Both the position numbers and the translations under genes were made by a program. Source: a virus (taxonomy: Duplodnaviria > Heunggongvirae > Uroviricota > Caudoviricetes). From it: 38,183 nucleotides of DNA. Position 1 is the first letter of the stretch; each line of letters starts with the position of its first letter. The stretch lies in the IMG/VR virus record IMGVR_UViG_2713896906_000008; one strand, 5' to 3'. Positions 1,134 to 35,562 of the stretch are shown one piece after another. The notes under the pieces are model-generated. The model did no database searches. It saw only the letters and a list, made by a program, of their open reading frames with translations, and was not told the DNA's origin.

Positions 1134-1664
1134 TTACCTTAATTTATCAAGCTCTCGTTTATTTCTTTTATCATGTATATCATTAAGAAATAATATATTA
1201 CTAGCAATGATACTAAATAACGCTATTATTTGTAGATATACTAATAACGCTGTGATAAAAAATCCAAACTTGCAGAACACGTGCTTATGCAAGGAAATGA
1301 AATCCAGATTTGAAAATATAGGTTTCGTTAAATTTATTATAACAATAGAAAATATTACAATAGCTGAAATTATAATGGTTTTCACTATCAGAGTAATTCG
1401 CTCAATATCTTTTTCTGTTTCCTTATGATAGTTTATACTAGTTATTGTTGATGGCTTTACAATTGAACTTACAGCTGCAGGGTAAATATATGCAAGCCAA
1501 ATACCTGCAATAGTGAAGATCATTGCAGAAATGTTTTGCAAGGTAGATAAAATATCTTTTATATCTGCATACGTATATTTATCTCCGAACAAATAAGCAA
1601 TAGCTATAATTGTTAGGAGAAAACATATGTGCAAAATTTTAGGTTTTATAATCATACTATGCAC
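1134..1664 (-). CDS. small inner-membrane protein with four predicted TM helices (cargo; RexB-like topology and position)
   Basis: 176-aa ORF with four hydrophobic segments; AT-rich; start overlaps stop of upstream 400-aa ORF (first ATG at 1655 lies 1 nt after the upstream TAG; track start 1664 is GTG). Confidence 0.6.
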   Translation of the reverse strand: MHSMIIKPKILHICFLLTIIAIAYLFGDKYTYADIKDILSTLQNISAMIFTIAGIWLAYIYPAAVSSIVKPSTITSINYHKETEKDIERITLIVKTIIISAIVIFSIVIINLTKPIFSNLDFISLHKHVFCKFGFFITALLVYLQIIALFSIIASNILFLNDIHDKRNKRELDKLR

Positions 1665-2859
1665 CTATTTTATGAATCTGCACTGTTGTATCATTATCAG
1701 CTTCTGGTTGTTCTATTATATCTTCATTTTTAAAACAATTCACCAAATCATTTCTATGAGCTTTTACTACACTCATTAAATATGAAGAAGAGTAATGTTT
1801 GTTTCTGTTAGAAAGGTCAACGTGAATTTCATGGCGATAAACATATTCATCTAACCAAGTAGTTGAACCATTTTTCCCATTTATTTTGAATCCGATGCGT
1901 GCGTGATCATTCCCTACATTCTCATTGTTGTTTTCTGTATCTTCTGAAATAGGATTGTGGTTTTCTATATATTCATCGATGAGTTTAGTGAACTCTTCAG
2001 GCGTAGGCGTTCCTTCGACTAATAATTCAACGCGATGTTTTTTTGATAAAATAGGAGAGCTTCTTGAGAAAACATCTCCAACTGCATCAAATAACTTCTG
2101 CCATTTTTCCCGTGTATCAGGTATGTTTGTTTCTATTACGTCATGGTAAACAATGTGAGTGATTTTTTTACACAGTTCTTCTATGTTTGCTCCACTCGTG
2201 ATCATCCTTGTTTGTTTAGTCTGTACTTTAAAAACTAAACTTTCATCATCACCTTGAGAAAAAAGAACACGTTTGTAATGAACGTCTTCAGGTGAGTCAT
2301 TACGAGGACGAGTCATATCTATGACTTTTTTATTAGGATGCTCCATCCTAAAGTCAACGTATGCTTTAATATAATGACAGAAAAGATCTGTATCCGTATT
2401 AGAACTTGGGAATCGTATGGATGCAATTTTGTTATATTCTGGAATTACCCAATAGTAGCAAGGTACGCCCCAGATATATTTACCGCCACCTTGAGTATCA
2501 GAGGCGGATACAACATTATCTGAAGTGCCGTCAATCTTACTTTCAGCATCTATACCTTGAATATTTCCAGAGTTATCACCGAGCGTTTTCCAGATAACAA
2601 ATAGATAATCTCCTGTCGTACTGTCATATGAAATATTTTTACAGTATGCTTTTGTTCTTCTATTATTATCCTTTCCCCATGGAACAGATTGTTCAACTGT
2701 TCTTGAACAGATCCAGCTATGTAAGTTACACAGAACATGGGATAAGTTCTTTTCGACTAATTCCGGCGATTTGCCTTGTCGTATTTTATAAAGGCCAAAC
2801 ATTTCTAAATCAAAAAATGTTATAATGCCGCGTTCAGTTTTAAAGTTGGTTTTACTCAT
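1657..2859 (-). CDS. hypothetical 400-aa soluble protein (cargo, co-oriented with cI)
   Basis: Long uninterrupted ORF in AT-rich island between cI and int; no motif recognised. Confidence 0.65.
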   Translation of the reverse strand: MSKTNFKTERGIITFFDLEMFGLYKIRQGKSPELVEKNLSHVLCNLHSWICSRTVEQSVPWGKDNNRRTKAYCKNISYDSTTGDYLFVIWKTLGDNSGNIQGIDAESKIDGTSDNVVSASDTQGGGKYIWGVPCYYWVIPEYNKIASIRFPSSNTDTDLFCHYIKAYVDFRMEHPNKKVIDMTRPRNDSPEDVHYKRVLFSQGDDESLVFKVQTKQTRMITSGANIEELCKKITHIVYHDVIETNIPDTREKWQKLFDAVGDVFSRSSPILSKKHRVELLVEGTPTPEEFTKLIDEYIENHNPISEDTENNNENVGNDHARIGFKINGKNGSTTWLDEYVYRHEIHVDLSNRNKHYSSSYLMSVVKAHRNDLVNCFKNEDIIEQPEADNDTTVQIHKIGA

Positions 2860-2939: not shown

Positions 2940-3821
2940 TTAATTCGAAATGATTGTGCTTCTTATGCATGCAACTACCTCGATATCAGAAAATGCACAT
3001 TCAAAGTAAGTTTCTTTACTTCTGATATTTATCATACCTTTAGGTAGCCTAGTAATTTGTCTGACGGAATAGGTTCCATCAATATTAATTAACCAGTATC
3101 CATCTAATACATCAGAAAATTTCTGATCACAGATGTATGCCACTAAACCATCCTGAACGACAATTGGTGCTGAAAGATTAGCGGGTAAAAATGACGAATC
3201 GAAAATATATGAGCCACTCTCAACCATTTTGCCTGCATTGAGATGAAATTTAGGCAGTTCTTTTACCGATGTTGTGAGAGCATTGTGCTCGCTGCCTTGT
3301 CCAGTGGCTAGCCATAAAAGAGAATTTCCTGTTTCCAACGAACATTTTATGATCCAATCAGCCGGGAATGTGTCTCGCAAATATCTATTTGCCATAGTGC
3401 TTTTAGATACATTCAGATGGTCGGCAAGTTCTTGTCTTGTTTTAAAGCCATACGCTTTCATTAGCCTGTCTATTGCATCACGTCCGCCTGAGTCCAAATT
3501 CAGATCGTTCCCAATTGGGGACTTCAGGGTGGTGGCTTGGGAAACGTGCTGAACCTTTGATGCAGTTGCCTTTGGCATGACCGGAGCCTCAGTACTCTGA
3601 GGGAATGGTACGCCTTTTCCGAATGAGAGCCACTCGATAGATGCACCCGTTTCAATTGCACACTGAATTACCCAGTCAGCAGGAAATACGTCACGCATCC
3701 AGCGCGTGCCCATAGTGCTTGCAGATACGTTGAACTGTTCGCACAGAGCTTGCCTTGTCTTGAATCCATACGCTTCAAGCATGCGCGTTATGACTGCTTG
3801 TCCTCCGTTTTTGAAATTCAT
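2940..3821 (-). CDS. cI: CI-type immunity repressor with tandemly duplicated N-terminal DNA-binding domain
   Basis: Two paralogous segments (LEAYGFKTRQALCEQFNVSASTMGTRWMRDVFPADWVIQCAIETGASIEWL and MKAYGFKTRQELADHLNVSKSTMANRYLRDTFPADWIIKCSLETGNSLLWL) resembling the 186 CI N-terminal domain, plus a C-terminal domain; divergent from apl/cII. Confidence 0.8.
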   Translation of the reverse strand: MNFKNGGQAVITRMLEAYGFKTRQALCEQFNVSASTMGTRWMRDVFPADWVIQCAIETGASIEWLSFGKGVPFPQSTEAPVMPKATASKVQHVSQATTLKSPIGNDLNLDSGGRDAIDRLMKAYGFKTRQELADHLNVSKSTMANRYLRDTFPADWIIKCSLETGNSLLWLATGQGSEHNALTTSVKELPKFHLNAGKMVESGSYIFDSSFLPANLSAPIVVQDGLVAYICDQKFSDVLDGYWLINIDGTYSVRQITRLPKGMINIRSKETYFECAFSDIEVVACIRSTIISN

Positions 3822-21086: not shown

Positions 21087-21480
21087 AGCGGTGCCTTATG
21101 TCCGCAATAACCCGGACAAACTGCATCTGTTTGTGGATAACGGTTCGCTGGTTGCTACGGGGGCCAGCTCCATGTCATGGGAGTACCGTTACACCCTGAA
21201 CGTGGTGATTGAGGATTTCAGCGGCGACCAGAATCTGCTGATGGCCCCGGTTTTGCTGTGGCTGCGGGATAACCAGCCCGATGCCATCAATAACCCGGCG
21301 TTACGGGAAAAGCTATTCACCTTTGAGGTGGATATTCTGCGCAACGATGTCTGTGATATCAGCCTTAACCTGCAACTGACGGAGCGTGTGCTGGTCAGCA
21401 CTGACGGCAATGTGTCGAGTGTTGAAGCTGTAGCGGAACCCGATGAACCTGAAGAAATGTGGACGGTGAAACGTGGCTGA
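21049..21480 (+). CDS. R: tail completion protein R
   Basis: GTG start with AGGAG SD; (M)NKPQSLRHALNKAV... parallels P2 gpR N-terminus. Confidence 0.8.
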   Translation: MNKPQSLRHALNKAVPYVRNNPDKLHLFVDNGSLVATGASSMSWEYRYTLNVVIEDFSGDQNLLMAPVLLWLRDNQPDAINNPALREKLFTFEVDILRNDVCDISLNLQLTERVLVSTDGNVSSVEAVAEPDEPEEMWTVKRG

Positions 21481-21922
21481 ACTGCAGAAAGTGGACGACT
21501 GGCTGAGTGCTTTGTTGGCGAATCTGGAACCAGCCGCCAGAAGCCGCATGATGCGCCAGCTGGCGCAGGAACTGCGCCGGACACAGCAGCAGAATATCAG
21601 GATGCAGCGCAACCCTGATGGCAGCAGCTATGAACCTCGACGGGTAACAGCACGCAGTAAAAAGGGACGCATAAAACGCCAGATGTTTGCAAAGCTTCGC
21701 ACCACAAAATACCTGAAAACTGCCGCCAGCGTGGACTCTGCCAGCGTGCAGTTTGAAGGTAAGGTACAGCGCATTGCCCGTGTTCACCATTACGGCCTGC
21801 GTGATCGCGTCAGTCGAAAAGGACCGGAGGTCCGCTATGCAGAGCGCCGCTTGCTGGGTTATAGTAATAATAGTTATCTAATCGTTAGTGATTTACTAAT
21901 GAAATGGCTAACGCATCGTTAG
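21473..21922 (+). CDS. S: tail completion protein S (3' end apparently altered by adjacent cargo insertion)
   Basis: 149 aa, MAELQKVDDWL...; last ~20 codons abruptly AT-rich. Confidence 0.8.
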   Translation: MAELQKVDDWLSALLANLEPAARSRMMRQLAQELRRTQQQNIRMQRNPDGSSYEPRRVTARSKKGRIKRQMFAKLRTTKYLKTAASVDSASVQFEGKVQRIARVHHYGLRDRVSRKGPEVRYAERRLLGYSNNSYLIVSDLLMKWLTHR

Positions 21923-21933
21923 CCATTACGAGA

Positions 21934-23199
21934 TTAATGAGTTTTAAGTGCCTCTGTTAAAGATTTTCGATGATGTTCCCAAAAGGCAAAATCATTTACG
22001 TTTGAACTAAACCTCAAATGCTCTTCAGAATATATTGTTTCACGGTGATCGCATCCAAGAAGACATAGAATTAATCTGGTTAGATATATTGTTAAGTGTT
22101 CACAAGCAACTGCAATGTTTATCAAGTTGTCACTTGGTATAATTACACCATGTATAATTATATTTCTGATTTCAGAAAGTCCTAGCTTACCAGATTCATT
22201 AAATAATGGCCATAAGTCATGAGTATGGATTAAATGTTCTTTAAGAAATTCTTGTGTGGCATCTTTTAATGATATTCTATTCAGTTCTCCTAGTTTGCTT
22301 TTTATTTTTCCTCTAGTTGTTGAATCTTTGATAACGTCCTGGGTGATGACTCTTTCAATTGTTTGTCTTAATGATTTAAACTCGCTTTCACATAGAATGA
22401 AGGACGTATTGTTTTTTTCTTTATGAGTTAAGATAATAGATTCAAAAGATTGGAAAAGTGAAAGGTATCGAGACTCAAGATATTGGTTTGATGCATTGAG
22501 GACATTAATGGCTAATCGGATGTTCTGTCTGTAATGGGATGACAAATATGTGTGAAACATATTTTCAATATTTTCTTTGGCTTGTAATGGCATCATCAAG
22601 TGTTCTTTTTTGGTATCCTTAATAGGATTTTTTATCCTACAGCGAAAAACTGTATATACACCATCATTAGATTTTAGGTTCCAGTAACGACAAACTACTT
22701 TGTTACTATTGAGAAATGATAAGATATCATTAAATGCGTCAATTTTGTCAATGTAGTTATTTCTTACATCATCAATGGTTAAATTAGAGTTATTGGACTT
22801 TATTTTTAGGATTTGTTTTGTGCTGATTTCAAATTTTTCATTGCGCTCTAGTTTTGATTCGATATCTAATTTTATATCTTCGTTATTATTAAGTTTAACA
22901 ATAATAGGCTCTGATTTTGTAAGAGATATGTTACCATCCGAAGATGGATTGTACTGAATGTTAGGGGAGAGTAGTTGATGGTCACTGTTGTAGAATGTTA
23001 TTTCCGTATCCGGCGTATTATGTGCTTTATTATTTATAATGACTTCATTGGGAATGATGTTAAATGTATAGTGTTGAGTTTTTCCTGAGTGACAGTCGGC
23101 GATGTTTTCTATTCTACAATCGATTAGTTTTATCACTGAGCGAACATCACCATTTACATAATGAGTACAAAATTCAATGTCTAAATTATTTTTTTTCAT
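21934..23199 (-). CDS. hypothetical 421-aa cargo protein; possible C-terminal HEPN-like domain (Rx4H motif)
   Basis: AT-rich ORF between S and V; C-terminal alpha-rich region with SEIRNIIIHG (R-x4-H). Confidence 0.65.
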   Translation of the reverse strand: MKKNNLDIEFCTHYVNGDVRSVIKLIDCRIENIADCHSGKTQHYTFNIIPNEVIINNKAHNTPDTEITFYNSDHQLLSPNIQYNPSSDGNISLTKSEPIIVKLNNNEDIKLDIESKLERNEKFEISTKQILKIKSNNSNLTIDDVRNNYIDKIDAFNDILSFLNSNKVVCRYWNLKSNDGVYTVFRCRIKNPIKDTKKEHLMMPLQAKENIENMFHTYLSSHYRQNIRLAINVLNASNQYLESRYLSLFQSFESIILTHKEKNNTSFILCESEFKSLRQTIERVITQDVIKDSTTRGKIKSKLGELNRISLKDATQEFLKEHLIHTHDLWPLFNESGKLGLSEIRNIIIHGVIIPSDNLINIAVACEHLTIYLTRLILCLLGCDHRETIYSEEHLRFSSNVNDFAFWEHHRKSLTEALKTH

Positions 23200-23380
23200 A
23201 AAGTTTGATGGTTTTTTTACTATAGGTCTTTATCTGAATCCTATCCCAGTTTTCTTTATTGTTGACAGTGACATTGCAAGTCATTTCGATACTGTTTTCT
23301 TTTTTTATAATATCGTTATTAATAGTAATTGGGTTGTGGTCATAAAAAAAAGTAACTTTAATTGATTCATACGTGTTCAC
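23186..23380 (-). CDS. small 64-aa protein, first gene of the S-V cargo operon
   Basis: GTG start preceded by AGGAGA 9 nt upstream; 14-nt overlap with the 421-aa ORF. Confidence 0.55.
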   Translation of the reverse strand: MNTYESIKVTFFYDHNPITINNDIIKKENSIEMTCNVTVNNKENWDRIQIKTYSKKTIKLYEKK

Positions 23381-23395
23381 TGATGTTTATCTCCT

Positions 23396-23413
23396 TGTGT
23401 GGTAAGCGACACA
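23396..23413. promoter_or_regulatory. Ogr/B-type late-activator dyad TGT-N12-ACA (late promoter of V operon)
   Basis: TGTgtggtaagcgacACA about 60 bp upstream of V start. Confidence 0.6.
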
Positions 23414-23459
23414 ATATTATCAAATTTTGAATCAAGAAAAAGGCTGCCATAGTTGCCTT

Positions 23460-24038
23460 ATGAACGCACAATTAACCGAAATCATGCGCCTTATCACCAA
23501 CCTGATCCGCACTGGGGTAGTCACCGAAGTGGACAGGGAAAACTGGCTTTGCCGAGTGAAAACGGGCGAGCTTGAAACTAACTGGATCAGTTGGCTGACG
23601 TTGCGTGCAGGAAATGCCCGGACATGGTGGCGACCATCGGAAGGTGAGCAGGTGGTGCTGCTGAGTCTGGGCGGAAATCTTGAAACCGCCTTTGCGCTGC
23701 CCGCTGTCTATTCGAATCAGTTTGCGCCACCGTCGACGTCGGCGGACGCCTGTGTGACAGAATATCCTGACGGTGGCTGGTTTGAATACGAACCAGCCAC
23801 CGGGCGCTGGTATGTCAGGGGCATCAAATCCATGGTCATTGAGGCTGCCGATAACATCACCCTGAAAACCAGTGAGTTTATGCTGGAGGCTGAGTGCACG
23901 CGTATTAACAGCGAAGTGGTGGTCAATGGTGGCGTTACTCAGGGCGGCGGAGCGATGAGTTCTAACGGGATCGTGGTTGATGCGCATCAGCATACTGGCG
24001 TCCTGAAAGGCGGCGATACAACCGGAGGCCCGGTATGA
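23460..24038 (+). CDS. V: baseplate spike/assembly protein V
   Basis: MNAQLTEIMRLITNLIRTGVVTEVD... parallels P2 gpV. Confidence 0.88.
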   Translation: MNAQLTEIMRLITNLIRTGVVTEVDRENWLCRVKTGELETNWISWLTLRAGNARTWWRPSEGEQVVLLSLGGNLETAFALPAVYSNQFAPPSTSADACVTEYPDGGWFEYEPATGRWYVRGIKSMVIEAADNITLKTSEFMLEAECTRINSEVVVNGGVTQGGGAMSSNGIVVDAHQHTGVLKGGDTTGGPV

Positions 24039-25289: not shown

Positions 25290-25887
25290 TCTGCTGCCAC
25301 CGGGTTCAACACCACTGGAGCGCCGACTGGCGCGAACCTGCAGCGGGATTTCTGATCTGCAGGTGCCACTGCGTGACTTGTGGAATCCTGCGACCTGTCC
25401 GGTCAGTTTCCTGCCTTATCTCGCCTGGGCGTTCTCTGTGGATCGCTGGGACGAGAGCTGGACAGAAAGCGTCAAACGCCAGGTGGTGAAGGATGCTTTT
25501 TATATTCATCAGCACAAAGGAACCACCAGTGCCGTGCGGCGGGTGGTGGAGCCGTTCGGCTTCCTGATCCGCATTATTGAGTGGTGGCAGACCGGAGAAA
25601 CACCAGGCACGTTTCGCTTGGATATCGGCGTGCAGGATCAGGGCATCACTGAAGATACCTATCTGGAACTTGAGCGGCTGATAAGCGATGCCAAACCATG
25701 TAGCCGTCACATGATCGGCATGTCCATCAATCTGCAGACCAGCGGTCCGCATTGGGTGGGGGCCGCCAGCTATCTTGGCGAAGAAATCACGATCTATCCG
25801 TATATCAACGAAACAATTATTTCCGGCGGCACCGCGCATGAAGGTGGGGCGGTCCATGTTATTGACACAATGAGAGTGAATCCATGA
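25282..25887 (+). CDS. I: baseplate/tail protein I
   Basis: LWNPATCPVSFLPYLAWAFSVDRWDESW parallels P2 gpI. Confidence 0.85.
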   Translation: MNSLLPPGSTPLERRLARTCSGISDLQVPLRDLWNPATCPVSFLPYLAWAFSVDRWDESWTESVKRQVVKDAFYIHQHKGTTSAVRRVVEPFGFLIRIIEWWQTGETPGTFRLDIGVQDQGITEDTYLELERLISDAKPCSRHMIGMSINLQTSGPHWVGAASYLGEEITIYPYINETIISGGTAHEGGAVHVIDTMRVNP

Positions 25888-33921: not shown

Positions 33922-35018
33922 ATTTCAGCTCTGAACTGCTTAACAAAGGCAACAAAACTCCCGCATTCAGCATCAGTATTGAGGGCAGGGATATCACCAC
34001 TGTGCTGGATAACCGCCTGATGAGTTTGACGCTGACGGATAACCGGGGCTTTGAAGCGGACCAGCTTGATCTGGAGCTGGATGACGCTGACGGAAAAATC
34101 GTGCTGCCGCGCCGTGGTGCGGTCATTACGCTGGCGCTGGGCTGGAAGGGGCAGCCGCTTTTCCCTAAAGGGGCATTCACAGTGGACGAGATTGAACACA
34201 CTGGCGCACCGGACCGCCTGACTATCCGGGCGCGAAGTGCTGATTTTCGGGAAACGCTGAATACCCGCCGTGAAAAATCGTGGCATAAGACCACCGTCGG
34301 GGAAGTGGTGAAGGAAATAGCCGCGCGGCACAAGCTGAAGATGGCACTGGGTAAAGACCTGTCGGATAAGCCCGTGGAGCATATAGACCAGACTAATGAG
34401 AGTGACGGCAGTTTTCTGATGCGGCTGGCGCGACAGTACGGTGCCATCGCGTCGGTGAAAAATGGCAATCTGTTATTCATTCGGCAGGGACAGGGTAAAA
34501 GTGCTAGCGGTAAACTACTGCCGGTGATCACTATCACGCGTAAGGACGGCGACAGTCACCGCTTTACCCAGGCAGATCGCGGAGCTTACACGGGCGTAAT
34601 TGCCAGCTGGTTGCATACCCGCGAACCCGCGAAGAAAGAAAGCACCACGGTGAAGCGTAAGCGCAGGACTAAGAAGCAGAAGAAAGAGCCGGAAGCGAAG
34701 CAGGGCGATTACCTGGTGGGTACGGATGAAAACGTGCTGGTACTCAATCGCACCTATGCCAACCGGAGCAACGCCGAACGGGCAGCGAAAATGCAGTGGG
34801 AACGCCTGCAACGCGGCGTTGCGTCATTCTCGCTACAACTGGCGGAAGGGCGGGCAGATCTCTACACGGAAATGCCTGTGAAGGTCAGTGGTTTTAAACA
34901 GCCGATAGATGATGCGGAATGGACCATTACGACTCTGACACATACCGTCAGCCCGGATAACGGTTTTACGACCAGTCTGGAGCTTGAAGTGAGGATTGAT
35001 GATTTCGAAATGGAATGA
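33918..35018 (+). CDS. D: tail protein D (late gene control D)
   Basis: 366 aa, ATGA-coupled to U; last tail gene. Confidence 0.9.
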   Translation: MNFSSELLNKGNKTPAFSISIEGRDITTVLDNRLMSLTLTDNRGFEADQLDLELDDADGKIVLPRRGAVITLALGWKGQPLFPKGAFTVDEIEHTGAPDRLTIRARSADFRETLNTRREKSWHKTTVGEVVKEIAARHKLKMALGKDLSDKPVEHIDQTNESDGSFLMRLARQYGAIASVKNGNLLFIRQGQGKSASGKLLPVITITRKDGDSHRFTQADRGAYTGVIASWLHTREPAKKESTTVKRKRRTKKQKKEPEAKQGDYLVGTDENVLVLNRTYANRSNAERAAKMQWERLQRGVASFSLQLAEGRADLYTEMPVKVSGFKQPIDDAEWTITTLTHTVSPDNGFTTSLELEVRIDDFEME

Positions 35019-35108
35019 TTCTTCGCAATGGAGAACTTTTAAGTTTGCGAAATGGAATAATGCGGTATCATTATTGTGATTTTAGCAAAAATGGGGAGAA
35101 CTCGAAAA

Positions 35109-35327
35109 ATGATGATTTGCCCACTGTGTGGAAGTGCCGCCCATACTCGCAGCAGTTTTCAGGTATCTTCATTGACTAAAGAGCGTTACAACCAGTGCCA
35201 GAATATTAACTGCAGCCATACTTTTGTAACCCATGAAACTTTTGTTCGTTCGATTGCAACGCCAAAAGAGTCAAATCCGGTTCAGCCGCATCCAATGAAA
35301 TCAGGACAGGTGGCGCTCTCTCTTTGA
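35109..35327 (+). CDS. ogr: late gene transcription activator, zinc-finger (P2 Ogr / 186 B family)
   Basis: MMICPLCGSAAHTRSS...ERYNQCQNINCSHTF matches Ogr CPLC...H...C.N.NC zinc-binding pattern; rightmost prophage gene. Confidence 0.85.
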   Translation: MMICPLCGSAAHTRSSFQVSSLTKERYNQCQNINCSHTFVTHETFVRSIATPKESNPVQPHPMKSGQVALSL

Positions 35328-35407
35328 CGCTGCCGCCATTTTGTCGCCATCGTTAAAAAACAGTGCTTCTAACGTCATGATTTTAAACGGCATAAATTTC
35401 AGGCAAC

Positions 35408-35450
35408 AAAAAACCCATCAACCTTGAACCTAAATGGCGGGGTTGATGGG
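35408..35450 (-). terminator. rho-independent terminator downstream of ybjL (10-bp stem cccatcaacc/ggttgatggg + T6 on minus strand)
   Basis: Inverted repeat 35414-35423/35441-35450, A-run 35408-35413 on plus strand. Confidence 0.6.
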
Positions 35451-35562
35451 CTCCACAAAATGGGGACATCAAAGAAAAGCAGTGGCACTAATTAAGACTG
35501 ATGCCCCGAAGAAAAGTTCTGCGCTTGTGCAAAAAAATTTCATTCTCAGGGCAACTTCAGGT

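Follow-up and report, generated by a model that had tools for sequence, protein, structure and literature searches.

Between its tail genes S and V, a P2-like prophage carries an AT-rich insert that is likely to be a one-gene moron cassette and to encode an ApeA-like HEPN ribonuclease (RNase) of 481 residues, a single-protein defence gene that is switched off or weakened in this copy. The prophage (Peduoviridae) belongs to Escherichia albertii and is IMG/VR record IMGVR_UViG_2713896906_000008; its whole stretch of 38,183 bp is referred to here as the window. An earlier note, made from the sequence alone, had described the insert as a minus-strand operon of two open reading frames (ORFs) of 64 and 421 amino acids (aa). 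The coordinates of both ORFs stood, but the operon did not. Relatives encode one protein of 481-482 aa, and the two ORFs are a single 481-aa gene split by expansion of an A7 run to A8. The insert and its borders contain the following features.

21473-21922, plus strand: gene S, tail completion and virion morphogenesis, last gene of its late operon (PF05069, E value 4.8e-40; named S in relatives)
21860-21922, plus strand: cassette-specific AT-rich final 21 codons of S, YSNNSYLIVSDLLMKWLTHR and stop, part of the swapped module; homology with prophages L002 and L003 ends here
21903-21927: perfect 11-bp hairpin AATGGCTAACG / CGTTAGCCATT, which spans the S stop between the convergent S and HEPN genes
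21934-23199, minus strand: 421-codon ORF with ATG start (ORF list)
21937-22590, minus strand: all-helical C-terminal HEPN (Apea-type) domain of the predicted model, native residues ~264-481
22150-22167, minus strand: codons of the catalytic motif R-N-I-I-I-H, native R405 to H410, which are R345 to H350 in the 421-aa ORF
23186-23380, minus strand: 64-codon ORF (ORF list), whose GTG is the true start of the gene
23189-23196, minus strand: A8 homopolymer with the +1 frameshift; the 421-codon ORF has its ATG at 23199-23197 and the 64-codon ORF its TAA at 23188-23186
23391-23396, minus strand: Shine-Dalgarno sequence AAGGAG of the full-length HEPN gene, read from the sequence, 10 nt before the GTG
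23396-23413, plus strand: Ogr-type activator dyad TGT-N12-ACA of the late promoter PV, inside the swapped cassette and abutting the ribosome-binding site of the HEPN gene
23460-24038, plus strand: gene V, baseplate spike (PF04717, E value 7e-18); homology with all relatives restarts at its ATG

A single gene split by a frameshift

Residue numbers refer to the native 481-aa protein, and P0001 denotes the Salmonella orthologue (UniProt A0A744JWZ8). The 64-aa ORF aligned with the N terminus of the 481-aa homologues. It comprises native residues 1-63, with the first three beta-strands and a short helix of the N-terminal domain, and has one further codon that is out of frame. In the 421-aa ORF, which is identical to WP_237763730.1 of E. 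albertii, residues 4-421 correspond to native residues 64-481 and hold the rest of the beta-rich N-terminal domain together with the HEPN domain. Removal of one A from the A8 run yielded a stop-free frame of 481 codons. The junction reads TATGAAAAAAAATAA in the window compared with TATG-GAAAAAACAA in E. coli 23CRST035, where the gene is a single 481-aa coding sequence; this was the sole strain with the same insert among 5,426 complete E. coli genomes. Homologues of Salmonella and Citrobacter are single proteins of 481-482 aa. The Salmonella protein was found on at least 428 contigs, and in the contigs that were read (26 of 26) it lay between S and V. The strong Shine-Dalgarno sequence that had been noted for the 64-aa ORF is present, 10 nt before the GTG.

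An intact A7 allele was found in the IMG/VR contig UViG_2740892218_000010 (L024; 38,182 bp). Over 7,443 bases, L024 and the window differ at two places only, the A-run base and a substitution at position 25618. Because this near-identical prophage holds the intact allele, the frameshift is a very recent homopolymer expansion and is reversible. Among relatives the tract is A7 in L024, GGA6 in loci L001, L022 and L023, and an in-frame A8 in Salmonella. The A8 allele of the window is present in three assemblies, GCA_001514925.1 (BBVW01000005.1), Logan DRR017181 and Logan DRR017182, in which the exact matches to the window were stretches of 3.7 to 21.3 kb.

As a result of the A8 frameshift, the window copy is probably inactive or weakened. 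In the predicted model the break lies in a loop (residues 61-65) between secondary-structure elements, and strands 1-3 with the conserved C35 and position 40 are detached. Some function may be left at a low level if the polymerase slips on the A run, if translation restarts at the overlapping ATG or if the two fragments reassemble. The chances are about even that the gene is a dead pseudogene in the E. albertii strain, a decaying relic whose function was abolished by the frameshift. The parting of the conserved strands from the rest of the domain is consistent with such decay, as is the internal ATG, which has no Shine-Dalgarno sequence. In addition, a canonical ApeA in the same slot of E. coli EC416 is also frameshifted, which suggests that such genes are costly and often knocked out. 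However, the lesion is a single base, the remaining frame is free of stops, and both halves are fully encoded on either side of a loop. The intact gene of L024 points to a recent event, and defence pseudogenes were reported to be rare at P2/P4 hotspots (preprint on P2/P4 hotspots).

Phase variation, in which slipped-strand events would shift the run between A7 (on) and A8 (off) and so toggle a costly RNase defence gene in the population, appears rather unlikely. Both alleles occur in otherwise near-identical prophages, the A8 allele was seen in more than one assembly, and the tract varies between A6, A7 and A8 among lineages. However, two states only were observed, in a handful of genomes, and the A8 assemblies, three in number, may stem from a single lineage. 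Runs of seven to eight A are also common in DNA with 30% G+C content (GC). Cluster members of 64-67 aa were considered as recurrent frameshift products and rejected; they are C-terminal fragments at contig ends.

Many Salmonella entries of the gene are short 'partial' proteins of 64-278 aa. The four short entries that were read (64-103 aa) were all C-terminal fragments. Contigs of short-read assemblies seem to break frequently at the AT-rich HEPN gene.

The HEPN domain and its family

The earlier note had pointed to SEIRNIIIHG, in an alpha-rich C-terminal region, as a fit to the HEPN motif Rx4-6H. The R codon lies at 22167-22165 and the H codon at 22152-22150. Conservation was assessed in an alignment of 100 diverse homologues, which are 17-38% identical to the query except for a Citrobacter homologue at 70%. 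E313, W390, R405 and H410 were invariant, and the RNxxxHG motif is in agreement with the HEPN pattern. N406 was conserved in 97% and G411 in 98% of the homologues, N367, R368, A425 and R435 in at least 92%, and C35 and position 40 in 84%. Aromatic residues were conserved at positions 129, 171, 233 and 245. An exhaustive HMMER search yielded 439 cluster representatives at 50% identity, nearly all of ~480 aa.

Structure prediction with AlphaFold2 was performed for the Salmonella form of 481 aa, whose sequence shares 92% identity with the window protein. With the 100-sequence alignment the model reached a predicted local distance difference test (pLDDT) score of 94.1 and a predicted template modelling (pTM) score of 0.90; with a 6-sequence alignment the pLDDT was only 46. 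Residues 264-480 are all helical in the model and adopt the up-down helical bundle of HEPN domains. The alpha-rich region had thus been recognized correctly, but the conserved beta-rich half in front of it had been missed. This half (residues 1-250) contains 16 strands and two helices, and the strands within residues 1-63 are 3-13, 30-39 and 48-52. Similarity of the N-terminal domain to the Hcp/tail-tube fold was obtained in three independent fold searches, and the Foldseek hits were of this Hcp/tube class both in the PDB and among viral models. The ApeA cryo-EM entries (9HX series, among them 9HXJ of Ec3ApeA) were not among the PDB hits. Profile comparison revealed no similarity between the N-terminal domain and the phage's own tube protein.

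The profile search for HEPN and abortive infection (Abi) domains that the earlier note had proposed gave a divided result. Neither the window protein nor P0001 matched PF18739 (HEPN_Apea) in the Pfam search, even at E ≤ 10, but 32 of the 100 relatives did so at E ≤ 0.01, with a best value of 5.1e-10. Seven sampled hits scored 14.4-20.2 bits, all under the gathering score of 24.4. They extend over the greater part of the 136-position profile, in five cases almost all of it, and map to residues ~311-450. In direct searches with the window ORFs and the full-length homologues the sole match was phrog_22870, a family without functional annotation (E value 1.5e-272, profile positions 62-481). A tblastn search with P0001 against 50,697 phage records gave no match, and a profile query of a word-indexed protein search returned 5 proteins only. 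The UniProt label of the Salmonella orthologue is 'ApeA N-terminal domain-containing protein'. With hmmscan against Pfam, no match to an ApeA N-terminal domain was detected for P0001 (E ≤ 10) or any of the 100 relatives. The discrepancy may be due to a difference between Pfam versions or to a filter effect.

The closest characterized relatives are the single-protein ApeA defence RNases (Gao et al. 2020), which agrees with the single-protein Abi systems that had been named as a model. ApeA cleaves tRNA anticodons and forms ligand-activated oligomers, and in Ec1ApeA and Ec2ApeA the exchange of the HEPN arginine to alanine led to loss of defence (bioRxiv 10.64898/2026.01.26.701840; bioRxiv 10.64898/2026.03.20.713152). 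Ec3ApeA conferred moderate protection against phages (bioRxiv 10.64898/2026.01.26.701840). The window protein resembles ApeA as a single protein with a C-terminal Apea-type HEPN domain, no partner gene, an AT-rich gene and a residence in mobile elements. Both have an [IT]RNxxxH[S]G motif (RTRNNIVHSG in Ec3ApeA, EIRNIIIHG in the window) and an ALESL-like motif with a conserved E in helix 1 (WIALESL and FQSFESI, respectively); the Ec3ApeA-type C terminus used for the comparison was that of E. coli EC416. An Ec3ApeA-type gene also occupies the same P2 S-V slot.

The differences lie mainly in the N-terminal half. With 481 aa compared with ~580-600 aa, the window protein is ~100 residues shorter than ApeA. 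Its family has a beta-rich front end with Hcp/tube-like barrels, whereas validated ApeA is described as having a helical N-domain and a PafA-like Mid domain. The ApeA architecture, with a helical N-domain and Mid on a split HEPN domain and a ligand pocket, was not seen in the 481-aa model. PADLOC did not recognize the window ORFs, P0001 or P0003. Eleven of the 100 family members weakly matched its Cas13-ApeA models, ten of them one model (best E value 1.5e-4) and one a second model. By analogy, the window protein probably works like ApeA, though it falls outside ApeA as validated. Bp1ApeA (WP_076938731.1), a 467-aa 'minimal' homologue reported to be untransformable, may be a member of the family of the window protein, as judged from its description only.

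In architecture the window protein does fit a combination listed among conflict systems with the prototype PCC7424_5050 (Anantharaman et al. 2013, PMC3710099), in which ApeA-NTD1, a domain of ~300 aa made up mostly of beta-strands with conserved aromatic residues, precedes HEPN Apea. In the window protein, too, a mostly beta N-terminal domain is fused directly to an Apea HEPN domain. That description was purely computational, and neither the Hcp/tube-like fold nor the residence in the P2 slot is part of it. HepT/MntA and the minimal HEPN toxins (PDB 7ae2, 8xdj, 1jog, 1wwp and 2hsb) differ in size and layout. The window protein exceeds them three- to fourfold in size, carries an N-terminal domain fused to its HEPN domain and is encoded without an MNT antitoxin partner.

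The S-V slot and its cargo

In a composition scan of the window, GC was 0.25-0.36 across ~21,860-23,459 and 0.51-0.62 in both flanks. Positions 21860-23459 have an overall GC of 0.31 compared with 0.50 for the remaining window, which gives an AT-rich island of ~1.6 kb between S and V, as had been proposed. DNA homology with the empty-slot prophage L002 (phage 500465-1) and with L003, a prophage with other cargo, breaks at ~21859, 21 codons 5' of the S stop, and restarts precisely at the V ATG (23,460). The ORF lister had called TTG 23427 as the start of V, which was rejected in favour of this ATG. In relatives without the insert, the S tail is of another kind and its GC is normal. These data support horizontal acquisition of the insert in the S-V moron slot with replacement of the S 3' end, the latter as the earlier note had suspected from the abrupt change in composition. 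Five kinds of S tail were found, each paired with a different cargo.

Window cassette: YSNNSYLIVSDLLMKWLTHR
Empty slot and PDC-S59 cargo: VNDDVEAMTRDMILQWLAG
271-aa cargo: INNKMQSVIGDILHQWLFK
Septu cargo: MNEYAENIVKDILFQLLIK
Ec3ApeA-type cargo: VNDDLYFLTRRILLQWLAR

Most S tails keep the pattern D-[ILM]-[IL]-x-[QK]-[WL]-L; the Ec3ApeA cassette has R for D. At the other border, the V late-promoter dyad is present beyond the two ORFs, as the earlier note had stated. Its centre lies 55 nt 5' of the V ATG, the same spacing as between the annotated activator site and V start of P2, and the empty-slot prophage L002 carries its own TGT-N12-ACA. The comparison with a non-essential P2 ORF at this position also held. 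At this place P2 has the nonessential Orf30, on the minus strand, with the S-operon terminator on one side and the PV activator site on the other. In the same manner, the window gene is antisense and AT-rich, has the S operon's end and the Ogr-dependent PV as its borders, and is absent from related phages. The hairpin at 21903-21927 is identical in L001. It has a folding energy of -15.5 to -17 kcal/mol, with z values of -4.0 and -4.9 against shuffles, and no U-tract follows it. It is a candidate for a bidirectional terminator or an RNA-stability element, although the consensus terminator scan called no canonical terminator, this hairpin included.

The occupancy of the slot was determined in 60 records, sampled so as to be spread over the 1,049 E. 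coli records that matched. The slot was empty in ~33 of the ~51 sampled records in which both flanks were matched as one place. In other E. coli prophages the following cargo was found.

L017 3030-4912, E. coli WP4-S18-ESBL-08: Septu pair PtuA (E value 1.6e-138) and PtuB (E value 5e-100), complete, in one record
L016 867-2156, E. coli Ecol_AZ147: PDC-S59 (PADLOC E value 1.7e-197), minus strand
L044 3601-5354, E. coli EC416, NZ_AP027404: Ec3ApeA-type gene, frameshifted, annotated as hypothetical proteins of 195 and 372 aa
Further minus-strand cargo: a hypothetical protein of 271 aa, a DUF6216 protein and an FRG-domain protein

The Ec3ApeA-type gene of EC416 has a GC of 0.32 compared with 0.56 in its flanks, and the cloned 5' flank of the protective Ec3ApeA opens with the V start codon region, reverse-complemented. 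The EC416 gene is the second disrupted ApeA-type gene observed at the S-V slot. Orf30 and the DUF6216, FRG-domain, PDC-S59 and Septu morons share position, minus strand, AT-richness and dispensability with the window gene but are unrelated to it in sequence. Orf30, the 271-aa cargo and a 429-aa cargo were considered as relatives of the window protein and rejected on the same ground. The DUF6216 protein also occupies the slot of the P2-like prophage in laboratory E. coli B strains, namely the derivatives C43(DE3) (NZ_CP011938, 884080-886091) and B95.deltaA. IS1 adjoins slot cargo in two strains, by the DUF6216 protein in EC19 and by a hypothetical protein in 2024CK-00475.

The distribution of the family itself was followed with an 11-sequence family profile. 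All 19 IMG/VR loci recovered, and four further prophages examined in public assemblies, carry the family member in the S-V slot, where members may be as little as 22-39% identical to the query. Compared with the window, the 19 loci are 50-99% identical in S, 65-100% in V and 27-98% in the HEPN protein. The divergence of the HEPN protein does not track that of S and V, which fits allele swapping at a defence slot. Distant members are solitary. One is found in Tn7-like cargo by an nSTAND nucleoside triphosphatase, and another by Mrr-like, helix-turn-helix and terminase genes. No conserved neighbour or partner gene was found in the contexts examined, at least ten in number. We conclude that P2-like phages have a real slot for defence cargo at the S-V boundary, beyond the two classical P2 hotspots.

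Proposed function and significance

In the preferred reading, the HEPN gene would be expressed in the lysogen from its own promoter, which would overlap PV and run antisense to the late operons. Two HEPN domains would dimerize to form a composite RNase site, and the N-terminal domain would keep this site silent until an infection cue is received. The activated enzyme would then cut RNA, with tRNA anticodon loops or phage RNA as the likeliest targets, and cleavage would block the superinfecting phage. The presence of Septu, PDC-S59 and Ec3ApeA-type genes in the same slot was counted for an anti-phage role.

Several observations weigh against this reading. The window protein and its close homologues had no direct match in Pfam, PADLOC, NCBIfam or PDB sequences, and none of the 100 family members matched a PADLOC model named ApeA. 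Profile comparison with canonical Ec3ApeA aligned 43 columns only, in helix 1 (E value 0.0046, probability 7.5%). Since the N-terminal domain is unlike that of validated ApeA, the trigger and oligomer of ApeA are not transferable. A search of the literature library at hand found no experimental work on ApeA-NTD1 proteins. The consensus scan found no sigma-70 promoter upstream of the HEPN gene; an extended -10 candidate, TGATAATAT at 23423-23415, was read by eye only and was not called by the scan. The window allele itself is frameshifted, and the break takes away conserved strands of the N-terminal domain. The ratio of nonsynonymous to synonymous substitutions (dN/dS) among close alleles was 0.35-0.6, which is uninformative on function owing to the few substitutions.

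The fold of the N-terminal domain admits a more specific version of the proposed mechanism, which we consider improbable. The beta-rich domain could be a true tail-tube/Hcp module that serves as sensor or assembly platform of the RNase. It would assemble into rings like Hcp, as an analogue of the ApeA decamer, or co-assemble with the tube, sheath or baseplate proteins of an invading contractile-tail phage, in which case structural mimicry would trigger the RNase. P2-like phages, themselves contractile-tailed, would then keep highly diversified alleles (down to 22% identity) in one fixed slot next to their tail genes for use against rival phages, and the slippery A run would act as an on/off switch.

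The same fold raises the question of a role in the lytic cycle or in the virion, either as a tube-like RNase effector that is loaded into or onto the tail and injected or as an RNase for host shutoff. Hcp proteins with C-terminal toxin extensions are known type VI secretion system (T6SS) effectors. Their existence, the Hcp/tail-tube likeness and the location of the gene among the tail genes of contractile-tail phages in every phage locus found speak for such a role. It is nevertheless very improbable. The gene is antisense to and outside of both late operons, between the S hairpin and PV. Most related prophages lack it, as the count of empty slots shows, so virions can do without it. Septu, PDC-S59 and ApeA can take its place, and its distant members occur as solitary genes on chromosomes. 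Neither a T6SS nor a virion context is evident, and the protein has no similarity in sequence to the phage's own tube protein, to T6SS Hcp with toxin extensions or to the tube proteins of phages and contractile injection systems.

Least credible of all is a genuine two-gene module of a 64-aa antitoxin or regulator and a 421-aa HEPN toxin: the stop/start overlap ATGAAAAAAAATAA would permit translational coupling and many HEPN toxins are partnered, e.g. HepT/MntA, but the 64-aa ORF matches the N terminus of the single 481-aa protein residue for residue in every relative, so that there is no separate conserved partner gene, the family is uniformly ~480 aa long and no neighbour gene is conserved.

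Further islands and cargo genes were observed elsewhere in the window.

1134-2859, minus strand: AT-rich gene pair (GC 0.31-0.36) flanked by the genes for integrase (1-1053) and CI repressor (2940-3821); matches the PADLOC candidates PDC-M18A (400 aa, E value 2e-36) and PDC-M18B (176 aa, E value 5e-24), no Pfam domains
9754-11936, plus strand: classical gpA-portal hotspot with three genes, an Rv2179c-like 3'-5' exoribonuclease (E value 5e-50), the HipA-like kinase PDC-M03A (E value 4e-36) and the HIRAN-domain protein PDC-M03B (E value 4e-36)
12834-13484, minus strand: 216-aa ORF of GC 0.34 that adjoins the portal gene, no Pfam or PADLOC match
35563-37248, minus strand: Asp-Al_Ex/TrkA_C transporter (E value 9e-84), a host-type gene

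On its right side the prophage probably ends near 35,000-35,500, where GC falls to 0.42.

For annotation, the 64-aa and 421-aa calls in E. albertii (WP_237763730.1) are to be read as one frameshifted gene. Each S-V cassette brings its own S tail and PV promoter, which locates the recombination joints. That a P2 cargo slot holds an HEPN RNase is in line with expectation, and the copy in the window is broken. What merits attention is the tube/Hcp-like front end, a slot that also holds Ec3ApeA and Septu as a hotspot, and a family that is widespread, with 439 clusters at 50% identity and occurrence in hundreds of Salmonella genomes. The high-confidence model can be used for the design of R405 and H410 mutants and for the search for the trigger. 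As judged from sequence, the family joins an ApeA-type HEPN RNase to a different, beta-rich front end; PADLOC gives no call for it, so it is missed by current defence finders.

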